Shown here: piece after piece, positions 38,105 through 43,847 of the stretch
Numbering within the stretch: position 1 is the first letter of the stretch
Layout: every line of letters begins with the position of its first letter
NCBI RefSeq assembly: GCF_003019035.1
Contig: NZ_CP027447.1
DNA: 64,000 nt
DNA from: Escherichia coli
GTDB taxonomy: Bacteria; Pseudomonadota; Gammaproteobacteria; Enterobacterales; Enterobacteriaceae
Strand: one strand, 5' to 3'
Translations under genes and position numbers: made by a program
The notes under the pieces: model-generated
What the model was told of the DNA's origin: nothing
Databases searched by the model: none
What the model saw: the letters and a program-made list of their open reading frames with translations, nothing else

Positions 38105-38599
38105 TCAAAACAGCCCTTTAACGGAGCTGGCCGCGCTGTTAAGGGATGATGTGACCTTATCTTTGAAGCCGGACAGCATATCACTGAACGATGAGGATTG
38201 CAGGCGCTCCCGCAAATCCTCATCACAGCGTTCAAGAGTCAGTGAAAATTCTATCTTTTTCGCCTTACCGTAGCGATCAAACTCGGAGCGGGTCGTATTC
38301 GTTTCAGTCAGTACATACATGCCGTAAATCTGCCCGACACCATCAATCAGAGGCCAGGGGCGTCCTGTATATGCCTGCGTGGTCAGCAGCGAAAGCGACA
38401 CTTCGCCACCTGTAATTTCAGGATAAAGCACGCCAGAAAGCACGATGCGATCATCACCTGCACCGATATACTGCCAGCTTGCTGAGCGGTTTACGCGCTC
38501 ATTTTTCACATGCCGCCAGCTTTTGTTTTGCTGTAACTGCTGATGCGGCAGTGTGCGCAGCTCAAAAACAAACATGCCGTAGATCATCATCATGACCAT
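38105..38599 (-). CDS. Tail protein U (P2 gpU-like)
   Basis: 164 aa; FVFELRTLPHQQLQ N-terminus resembles P2 gpU. Confidence 0.8.
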   Translation of the reverse strand: MVMMMIYGMFVFELRTLPHQQLQQNKSWRHVKNERVNRSASWQYIGAGDDRIVLSGVLYPEITGGEVSLSLLTTQAYTGRPWPLIDGVGQIYGMYVLTETNTTRSEFDRYGKAKKIEFSLTLERCDEDLRERLQSSSFSDMLSGFKDKVTSSLNSAASSVKGLF

Positions 38600-38605
38600 G
38601 ACTCC

Positions 38606-42506: not shown

Positions 42507-43690
42507 CAGGCACCTCCCAGCACCGCAAATGCGGGACCAAAGAATTCATCAGTAAACGTCTGGTAAAGCTCCATGTCTTCCAGTGGCGGAACGGGCGTAT
42601 ATTTGTAGCGAATACGCACACGTCCCTGACGTAAATTCGTGGTGCCGTTATCCACCACGTCATACCAGCACTCCGCACCAATCAGTTTCCCGGCAGTAAC
42701 CAGCGAATCCAGTTTTGCCCTGATGGCACTGATAACATCCTTCACGTTCGCAGGCGTCAGTGGACTGTCGATGGTTTCAAACTGCGCTTCCGCAATTGAA
42801 TCAGCCAGCACCTGTGCGGTTCGGGTATACACCTCAAAGATGTAGGCGTTCGTTTCCGGTGTGCGGTTGCCCCAGAAGCGGAACCCGTTGCGACGAATAA
42901 TGGTCGTGATTTCTTTGTTGTTGAGGCTGTTGGCATCGCTGTCTTCGGCCTGCAACGACCAGAACACATGCCTGGACATTCCCAGCACATTTTTAACCGG
43001 AACGTTGGACAGCGATTTGTGCCAGCCCTGCTCATGGTCAATGTACGCACGAAGACCGCACGCATAAGCAGGCGCGGGGAACGTTTCGTTTTTGCCACTT
43101 TTCGGGTTGTAGGCGATGAAGTCAGGCCATAAGAGCATCACCTCACGTTCGTTGAATTTCTGGCGGTAGGTAATCGCCTCAGCCATCGTGTTACAGCCGT
43201 GACATGAGGCATACACAAACGCGCGCAGTTTACCCGCAATCACGCACAGGGATTTTGTTACCGCCTCCGTGTCCAGCTCCGGCGCGGCCAGAATACGCGG
43301 ACGGTATCCGATGCTTTCATCCTGCTCTGCAACAAGCAGCGCATACATCCCCGTATAGCTGCCGTCAGATTCAGAACCACCGATAACCAGTTGATCCTGC
43401 GTTTTTCCGTCTTCTTCTTTGTGTTCAGCCACGCGAACGACGATCACCTTTGTGCTCACCTGGTCTGCGATGGCCTTAAGCGCACGATAAAGCGTCCCCG
43501 TTGTTCCGCATTTTCCCAGCACGTCATTGACGCGGGTCAGCAGTGTGGGCTTGTTCAGCGGGAACAGCTTCGCGTCCGCATCATCCGCCGTTGCCACGAT
43601 ACCGATAACGCTGGAATCAACATCGTTAATCGCTGTTACCAGGTCGGTATTTTCCGTAACACGGGCACCATGAAAACGAGTTTCACTCAT
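42506..43690 (-). CDS. Tail sheath protein (P2 gpFI-like)
   Basis: 394 aa, contractile sheath size and composition; first gene of the minus-strand tail operon. Confidence 0.9.
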   Translation of the reverse strand: MSETRFHGARVTENTDLVTAINDVDSSVIGIVATADDADAKLFPLNKPTLLTRVNDVLGKCGTTGTLYRALKAIADQVSTKVIVVRVAEHKEEDGKTQDQLVIGGSESDGSYTGMYALLVAEQDESIGYRPRILAAPELDTEAVTKSLCVIAGKLRAFVYASCHGCNTMAEAITYRQKFNEREVMLLWPDFIAYNPKSGKNETFPAPAYACGLRAYIDHEQGWHKSLSNVPVKNVLGMSRHVFWSLQAEDSDANSLNNKEITTIIRRNGFRFWGNRTPETNAYIFEVYTRTAQVLADSIAEAQFETIDSPLTPANVKDVISAIRAKLDSLVTAGKLIGAECWYDVVDNGTTNLRQGRVRIRYKYTPVPPLEDMELYQTFTDEFFGPAFAVLGGA

Positions 43691-43847
43691 AGCTTCAGCC
43701 CCTTGTATCCGTTAAATGATTCGGCAACAATCATCACCCACCACGCGCGTAATCTCACCCCTGCGCCGTTCTCCCGACCCGGCGACAACAAAAAGCAGTA
43801 ACCCCCTCCGCACGCACATGCGACCATGCCGCACAGGGAGGGAACAG

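Follow-up and report, generated by a model that had tools for sequence, protein, structure and literature searches.

Orientation of the FI-to-U tail gene block in a P88-group prophage of Escherichia coli

In phage P2 the genes FI, FII, E, T, U and D follow one another in a single rightward operon, as a preliminary description of the locus studied here had stated in agreement with the P2 record. The window, by which we mean the whole stretch of 64,000 nucleotides analysed from the Escherichia coli contig NZ_CP027447.1 (assembly GCF_003019035.1), contains the same genes with FI to U on the opposite strand to D. This raises the question whether the order is an architecture proper to a phage lineage, a 5.6-kb inversion that took place on the spot, or an assembly artefact, all of which had been considered in the preliminary description. 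In our assessment it is very probable that the element, a prophage of about 36 kb from the P88 group (Peduoviridae, Xuanwuvirus), carries the segment consisting of the pF promoter, FI, FII, E/E', T and U fixed opposite to P2 as the outcome of one ancient inversion, and that this arrangement is stable, functional, inherited and non-switching.

Gene content and boundaries of the tail block

Homologues of FI, FII, E, T, U and D are all present, and a gene of the Ogr_Delta family lies beside D, as befits a contractile tail module of the P2 type (Table 1). The six proteins share 33-49% identity with their P2 counterparts over most of each length. A co-directional F operon of the P2 type is not formed, as FI to U are encoded on the minus strand, D is encoded on the plus strand and U does not run into D. 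The open reading frame map and the PHROGs and Pfam scans bear out the strands originally given, that is, minus for the entire block from U to FI (38105-43690) and plus for the baseplate and fibre genes to its left as well as for D and ogr. All genes of the block are intact.

The divergence of D from FI across 157 bp, as first described, holds with the D start that is conserved among relatives. The longest D reading frame begins at 43716; in the alignment of the FI-D gap region the conserved start is at 43848, where the ATG and a GGGAGGG ribosome-binding site line up across relatives. The location of ogr downstream of D had also been given correctly. As to its reading frame, a correction applies: the Pfam match belongs to the frame listed in Table 1 and not to the overlapping one at 45019-45237, for which the Pfam scan returned no family. 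An ogr homologue follows D in every relative with the divergent FI/D architecture.

Within the block, gpU is 46.5% identical to P2 gpU and 98.8% identical to the P88 protein. The gpT tape measure gene has its probable start at ATG 41413, the start annotated in P88, rather than at 41449, where the longest reading frame begins. For gpE, identity to the P2 protein amounts to 34.8%, and a match to Pfam Phage_TAC_7 (4.7e-4) falls under the curated cutoff. Just before the tape measure gene the sequence reads A_AAT_TTT at 41621-41615, a slippery heptamer with the zero frame GTA AAT TTT, and the -1 frame is open as far as TGA 41402-41400. The chaperone is thus predicted to be made as E and, by programmed -1 frameshifting at this heptamer, also as E+E'.

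At its left end the block meets a gene for a Gin/Hin-type serine DNA invertase, the real start of which is probably ATG 37480, followed by MQIGYIRVS. The invertase gene is a neighbour outside the inverted block and, in line with the preliminary description, converges on U from the plus strand, ending at 38078. Seven nucleotides past the U stop codon lies a hairpin whose stem is flanked by an A-run and a T-run. Its RNA folds with -15.6 kcal/mol (z = -3.2), and none of 200 shuffled sequences was equally stable. It looks like a two-way terminator, which may serve the plus-strand invertase gene as well as the minus-strand operon from FI to U. In related phages the junction between the fibre genes and U is a hotspot for cargo genes.

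Table 1. Positions of genes and predicted elements in and around the FI-to-U block (coordinates of the window)
Feature	Position	Strand	Basis
P-O gap box: second copy of the activator box, TCT-N12-ACAACAAAAG, in the divergent gap between terminase (P) and scaffold (O) genes; internal comparison for the FI-D box	24428-24452	+	box scan
Gin/Hin-type serine DNA invertase, left neighbour of the block	37480-38078	+	Pfam Resolvase 3e-51 and HTH_7; PHROG DNA invertase 5e-100
Predicted two-way intrinsic terminator hairpin	38068-38097	both	12-pair stem on minus strand (terminator scan)
gpU, tail protein, last gene of the leftward tail operon	38105-38599	-	Pfam Phage_P2_GpU 5.5e-39
gpT, tape measure	38606-41449	-	PHROG tape measure 1.5e-219; P88 annotation; sequence
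E' extension frame, overlapping E	41400-41636	-	read from the sequence; relatives annotate a separate GpE-family frame here
gpE, tail assembly chaperone	41564-41938	-	PHROG tail protein 1e-36
gpFII, tail tube	41994-42506	-	Pfam Phage_tube 2.1e-45
gpFI, tail sheath, first gene of the leftward operon	42506-43690	-	PHROG tail sheath 1.1e-125; Pfam sheath domains
FI-D divergent intergenic region, 157 bp	43691-43847		alignment of eight genomes
Predicted weak -10 hexamer GATGAT, leftward FI promoter	43730-43735	-	relatives read GAATAT, GATTAT or GATGAT
Predicted Ogr-type activator box TCT-N12-ACA (43770-43787), followed by ACAAAAA	43770-43794	+	box scan
Predicted weak -10 hexamer GACCAT, rightward D-ogr promoter	43822-43827	+	conserved block CGCGCGC-ATG..ACCAT in alignment
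gpD, baseplate hub, "late control D", divergent from FI	43848-44957	+	Pfam Phage_GPD 2.9e-17; PHROG tail protein 1e-166
Ogr/Delta-type zinc-finger late activator, directly after D	45000-45260	+	Pfam Ogr_Delta 5.1e-14

Distribution and origin of the orientation

The stretch from the invertase gene to ogr aligns as one collinear piece, with 92-94% nucleotide identity, to Escherichia phage P88, Xuanwuvirus P884B11, phage 500465-2, Citrobacter phage phiSM, Chuche and PhiR44_2. The query used for this comparison comprised 9 kb and spanned both junctions of the block; P88 matched it with 92.7% identity over 91% of its length. The genus threshold of the ICTV lies at about 70% nucleotide identity. Judged by its late-gene half, which is the part compared, the prophage probably belongs to Xuanwuvirus. 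Its tail genes belong to the P2-like tail module. The annotated strands in P88 and phiSM are the same as in the window, and both phages form plaques (PMC5285337 and PMC6456863, respectively), as do SEN4/5 (PMC5261728), in which the block has the same orientation.

In E. coli the arrangement is common. Of 5426 complete genomes, 1106 (about a fifth) contain at least 80% of the segment 37400-45300 at a single site and in collinear order. A synthetic probe in which the 3' end of U runs into the 5' end of D, as at the junction in P2, matched with its halves in 1415 E. coli genomes; a joined junction of this type occurred in none of them. The lineage has a single orientation, and the alternative order is not seen in the E. 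coli population.

FI and D were further used separately as tblastn queries against 50,697 phage records, and orientation was confirmed on full records and by tblastn of 20 proteins of the window. FI and D are adjacent and divergent in all 47 records with a sheath identity of at least 55%. Besides Xuanwuvirus, these phages include Novemvirus phiT5282H, Reipivirus Kp48xx-1 (for example Kp4848-1) and ST16-OXA48phi5.4, Reginaelenavirus 3LV2017 with related Klebsiella phages, Senquatrovirus SEN4/5, and Serratia phage KSP20. Sheath identities of 50.5% or less go along with the collinear order in every match listed that occurs in both the FI and the D search (P2, ENT90, Cartapus, YenM_42.18, Kp4867-2, ST13-OXA48phi12.1, Shewanella M16-3, PHL101, phiCTX and Wolbachia WO). 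The divergent orientation is thus common to five genera at 55-75% protein identity. Taken together with KSP20 and the roughly 1100 E. coli genomes, this supports the lineage-specific architecture that had been one of the options. A shared orientation in functional relatives had been named beforehand as a reason to reject a rearrangement in this genome, and it is what the comparison of gene order revealed. The direction of FI to U as compared with that of D is a clean structural sign of this five-genus clade of Peduoviridae.

Neighbour-joining trees, that is, simple distance trees of 13 taxa, were calculated from FI+FII+U for the block and from D+J+N+V+W for its flanks. In each of them the genomes with the inverted architecture form a clade with 100% bootstrap support and similar internal structure, and all collinear phages fall outside. 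One ancient inversion therefore explains the pattern. Since the outgroups are collinear, the gene order of P2 represents the ancestral state and the inverted one the derived state. Of the two breakpoints of the inversion, one would have been located between U and D and the other in the variable stretch that separates the fibre genes from pF.

A module swap could produce the same gene order. The block from sheath to U would then stem from a different contractile-tail lineage and would have been inserted backwards; in its favour, phage genomes are mosaic, and the fibre-U junction of relatives is a hotspot for cargo. This explanation is very unlikely. Identity to P2 is 33-46% for proteins of the block and 42-55% for flanking late proteins, and because the two sets have diverged from P2 to a similar extent, the block is not a foreign cassette. 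The agreement of the two trees on the same fully supported clade points in the same direction, and co-inheritance is expected of the sheath, tube, tape measure and hub, as these have to assemble with one another. A recent inversion in place, specific to this genome or strain and possibly disabling the prophage, would fit the inverted position relative to P2 and the presence of an active-looking invertase gene beside one end of the block. It is nevertheless exceedingly improbable, for independent phages able to form plaques and the 1106 complete chromosomes show exactly the same arrangement, the alternative junction is absent from all 1415 genomes probed, and the orientation has been kept throughout five genera. 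Intact genes, a conserved gap for the candidate promoter and a predicted terminator also argue against it. The proposed in-place inversion accordingly holds good for the ancestor of the clade, where it happened once and long ago, and falls as an event in this genome.

That a contig segment was assembled in the wrong orientation has practically no probability either. Only the fact that the region looks unusual beside that of P2 speaks for such an artefact. Against the suspicion voiced in the preliminary description, single alignments to many independently sequenced phages and closed chromosomes run through each of the two junctions without a break, the junctions lack repeats that might confuse an assembler, and none of the 1415 genomes carries the alternative junction. 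The neighbouring invertase, in turn, could be thought to flip the 5.6-kb tail block as a programmed switch in the way in which fibre cassettes are inverted. It abuts the U end, and multiple crossover sites are located nearby (33.97-37.42 kb). The invertible fibre region of the window contains five exact copies and one degenerate copy of the crossover core CCCCAAACCAACGTTTT, but a search allowing up to three mismatches confined this core to 33974-37418 and yielded no copy near 38.1 or 43.7 kb. No inverted repeat flanking the block emerged from the repeat search around it, as had been noted originally; the best pairs of 20-28 nt are at chance level. In addition, the population exhibits one orientation only, with the alternative junction found in none of 1415 genomes. 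The block is inverted without an invertase gene at the fibre-U junction in SEN5, phiT5282H, 3LV2017 and many E. coli prophages, while ENT90 and Cartapus are collinear despite an invertase gene next to FI. A role of the invertase in the orientation of the block was rejected on these grounds, and we regard the probability of such a switch as vanishingly small.

A single ancient inversion thus remains the preferred explanation, and its use is mainly practical. Annotation programs and prophage callers that take P2 as a template should not mistake this gene order for a sign of rearrangement, prophage decay or faulty assembly. The value for discovery is small, as the arrangement is ordinary and found in known phages; it is already present in many deposited, ICTV-classified, functional phages and in this sense already known. 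An explicit published description of the inversion was not encountered in literature searches, which did not take in the likeliest source (Casjens & Grose 2016).

The FI-D gap as a candidate late promoter

Ogr-dependent late promoters of the type present in P2 and 186 carry a TGT-N12-ACA dyad with its centre some 55 bp ahead of the transcription start, and activators of the Ogr family work by contact with the alpha subunit of RNA polymerase. The FI-D gap measures 151-157 bp in all eight genomes compared, and each gap contains exactly one T(G/C)T-N12-ACA box at a homologous position. In the window the centre of the box is at 43778.5, 88.5 bp away from the FI ATG and 69.5 bp away from the D ATG; across the eight genomes these distances are 81.5-88.5 bp and 68.5-76.5 bp, respectively. 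The box is a perfect TGT-N12-ACA in SEN5, 3LV2017 and KSP20, and differs from it by one mismatch in the window, where TCT has a C in place of the consensus G. Activator boxes had been suggested as worth looking for on both sides of the gap. A box was indeed found, but it is a single, central one instead of one per side and is not perfect.

The same scan recovers the annotated activator sites of pF and pP/pO in P2, the pF site being centred 82.5 bp from the FI ATG. Counts of the motif carry little weight. Perfect TGT-N12-ACA is missing from the FI-D gap and occurs 12 times in the window against 14.8 expected, which is chance level, and the relaxed box with one mismatch is not enriched (11 found, 8.8 expected). 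The information sits in exact box matches and their placement, not in the frequency of relaxed patterns. The exact pattern TYT-N12-ACAACAA is found only twice in the 64 kb, in the FI-D gap (43770-43794) and in the P-O gap (24428-24452). This pattern was drawn from the two sites that it recovers, and a chance statistic for it is partly circular; it is the placement that constitutes the evidence.

The two predicted -10 elements are weak but conserved in position, each at some 46 bp from the centre of the box. The rightward one, GACCAT, is preceded by a GC-rich run, which is CGCGCGCG in relatives. A generic sigma-70 promoter scan found nothing in the FI-D gap and gave overall counts at chance level; an empty result is expected because activator-dependent promoters are concerned. 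No Rfam family matched at the gathering threshold between 33 and 49 kb.

Judged by these sequence features, the FI-D gap is a predicted bidirectional Ogr-dependent late promoter; promoter use, start sites and dependence on Ogr are all part of this prediction. Late transcription would fire in both directions from the 157-bp gap under the control of the one Ogr-type box at 43770-43787. The leftward transcript would cover FI, FII, E/E' with its -1 frameshift at 41621-41615, T and U and would end at the hairpin at 38068-38097, while the rightward transcript would comprise D and ogr, such that late read-through into the activator gene would be kept. If transcription began at the same spacing as in P2, some 55 bp away from the centre of the box, the leader of D would be only about 13-15 nt long, which counts against the promoter model.

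A wider reading can be formulated, for and against which we see the chances as evenly balanced. The inversion may have brought pF, together with its Ogr box, up to D and thereby created a second late promoter that is bidirectional with a single box. D would have been freed from translational coupling to U, V would have become fused to the O operon, and the four late units would be cut differently from the P, O, V and F operons of P2. The fibre|U and D|ogr junctions would later have turned into hotspots for cargo and defence genes. Should the bidirectional FI/D promoter be real, the inversion would have put an activator site that was already there to a new use, the expression of a gene just split off from its operon. 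Re-partitioned late operons, if true, would be modestly interesting and are directly testable. For practical purposes the fibre|U and D|ogr junctions are useful places to seek phage-borne cargo and defence genes.

Comparison with known phages

The closest counterparts of the window are P88 and phiSM, in which the series invertase, U, T, E, FII, FI, D and ogr forms one collinear piece with identical strands and with ogr after D. Their FI-D gaps have the same length of 157 bp and differ from that of the window by only three or four substitutions. Structural proteins are mostly 95-100% identical, with lower values for E (P88), I and H. In the comparison with P88, N, M, L, R, S, V, W, J, T, U, FII, FI, D and Ogr reach 94-99% and E, I and H 64-80%. 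The window differs from P88 and phiSM in the C-terminus of the fibre protein H and in gpI (64-80% identity). Its invertible fibre region is also larger, P88 being annotated with one inverted pair of fibre and assembly cassettes, and its integration site differs from that of some E. coli relatives.

SEN4/5, phiT5282H, Kp4848-1, 3LV2017 and KSP20 share the divergent FI/D genes, a gap of 151-157 bp, the homologous box and ogr after D with the window. In contrast to it, they have no invertase gene at the fibre-U junction and carry other cargo genes, and their proteins are 28-77% identical to those of the window.

The F operon of P2, which is transcribed from pF and runs from FI via FII, E/E', T and U to D, followed by ogr, consists of the same seven families in the same internal order. 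The -1 frameshift in E/E' and an activator box some 82-89 bp ahead of the FI ATG (both predicted for the window) are shared, as is the position of ogr after D. In P2, however, all six tail genes belong to one rightward operon in which the U stop codon overlaps the D start, whereas in the window FI to U are inverted and D, unlike its P2 counterpart, has its own ribosome-binding site and probably its own promoter. P2 furthermore possesses a separate pV; in the window S and V overlap without a gap and therefore leave no room for a promoter of this kind.

The pP/pO region of P2 resembles the FI/D region of the window: in each, two late operons diverge from a short intergenic stretch that has one box similar to TGT-N12-ACA in its middle. 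The centre of this box is located 78.5 and 95.5 bp from the ATGs of P and O, as compared with 88.5 and 69.5 bp from those of FI and D. The single-box divergent geometry is characterised only for pP/pO, according to the annotation of the P2 record; for FI/D, where the left half-site in the window reads TCT, it is a predicted one.

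Junction cargo and annotations in related phages

In the related E. coli prophage loci L014 and L015 both of the junctions made by the inversion of the FI-to-U tail block hold variable cargo (see the table of features). Between the fibre-assembly gene and U, the relatives encode either a glycosyltransferase of family 9 or a serine O-acetyltransferase, while the window carries the DNA invertase there; between D and ogr they encode a protein with either a PIN or a SEC-C domain, and the window has a 42-bp gap only. The inversion junctions look like hotspots of lysogenic-conversion or defence genes.

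The inversion is not the only rearrangement of tail genes that Peduoviridae undergo, as is evident from Mannheimia phage PHL101 (L013), in which the tape-measure gene T is annotated at 9727-12639, between the S and V regions and far from FI/FII/U/D. The GenBank entry for Citrobacter phage Shae_phiSM (OR565851.1) has its product labels displaced by one gene at 17024-19475, such that the label 'late control gene D protein' sits on the sheath and 'ogr/Delta-like zinc finger family protein' on gpD.

Coordinates of features in the window and in two related E. coli prophage loci
Feature	Location	Strand	Remark
Crossover core CCCCAAACCAACGTTTT, exact	34411	minus	
Crossover core CCCCAAACCAACGTTTT, exact	35968, 36446, 36885, 37402	plus	
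Crossover core, degenerate copy	33974		
Fibre-tip ORFs, promoterless	35515-35973, 35984-36451, 36462-36890, 36901-37464	minus	
Fibre-assembly gene/U junction cargo	L014 1228-2406; L015 1779-2351		homologous to window ~38.08-38.10 kb
D/ogr junction cargo	L014 9518-10588; L015 9741-10880		homologous to window 44958-44999
Hydrophobic ORF, 46 aa	45452-45592		downstream of ogr
Com-like zinc-finger ORF	45833-46039		overlaps methyltransferase start
DNA methyltransferase	45984-46775		

Organization of the late operon

In the stretch 24428-24520, the longest open reading frame for the scaffold protein O starts at 24485, within the -10 region predicted for the O promoter. The O gene of P88 is annotated with a length of 837 nt; transferred to the window, this would put the start at 24518. 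Further downstream, S (29781-30425) and V (starting at 30422) overlap at 30422-30425. A separate pV promoter therefore seems to be absent in this clade of P2-like phages and V-W-J-I-H would be transcribed from the O operon. At 27290-27365, the gap that separates M (small terminase) from L (head completion) holds a long GC-rich dyad (GGCGGCGTGCGCGGTGT...ACACCGCGCACCCACCGCC) with TTTTTT directly after it, possibly an attenuator or terminator inside the long rightward late operon.

Invertible tail-fibre region

An unusually large invertible tail-fibre region occupies 33972-37464. Five exact copies of the crossover core CCCCAAACCAACGTTTT, one on the minus and four on the plus strand, and one degenerate copy lie here within inverted repeats of ~210-240 bp, and four promoterless fibre-tip ORFs are arranged in tandem on the minus strand. 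The region looks like a multi-cassette host-range switch in the style of Min or a shufflon, whereas in the P88 record only a single inverted fibre/assembly cassette pair is annotated. A perfect TGT-N12-ACA motif (TGTATTTTTCACGAAACA) is present at 37446-37463, after the last crossover site (37402-37418) and before the probable start codon of the invertase at 37480. The ATG is too near for the motif to activate the invertase gene from a -55 position, and it may be a chance occurrence.

Right end of the prophage

Counterparts of the small hydrophobic ORF in relatives bear the annotation Hok/Gef family toxin, and around the window's ORF the DNA shares ~84% identity with a Hok/Gef locus of Stx2a phages; a Sok-type antisense RNA was not found with Rfam at the gathering threshold. 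The ORF at 47005-48000 sits where a related E. coli locus has flk, a host gene, which places the right end of the prophage at ~46.8-47.0 kb. The Com-like ORF and the DNA methyltransferase gene appear to be the last gene pair of the prophage, and their overlap resembles the com/mom layout of phage Mu.
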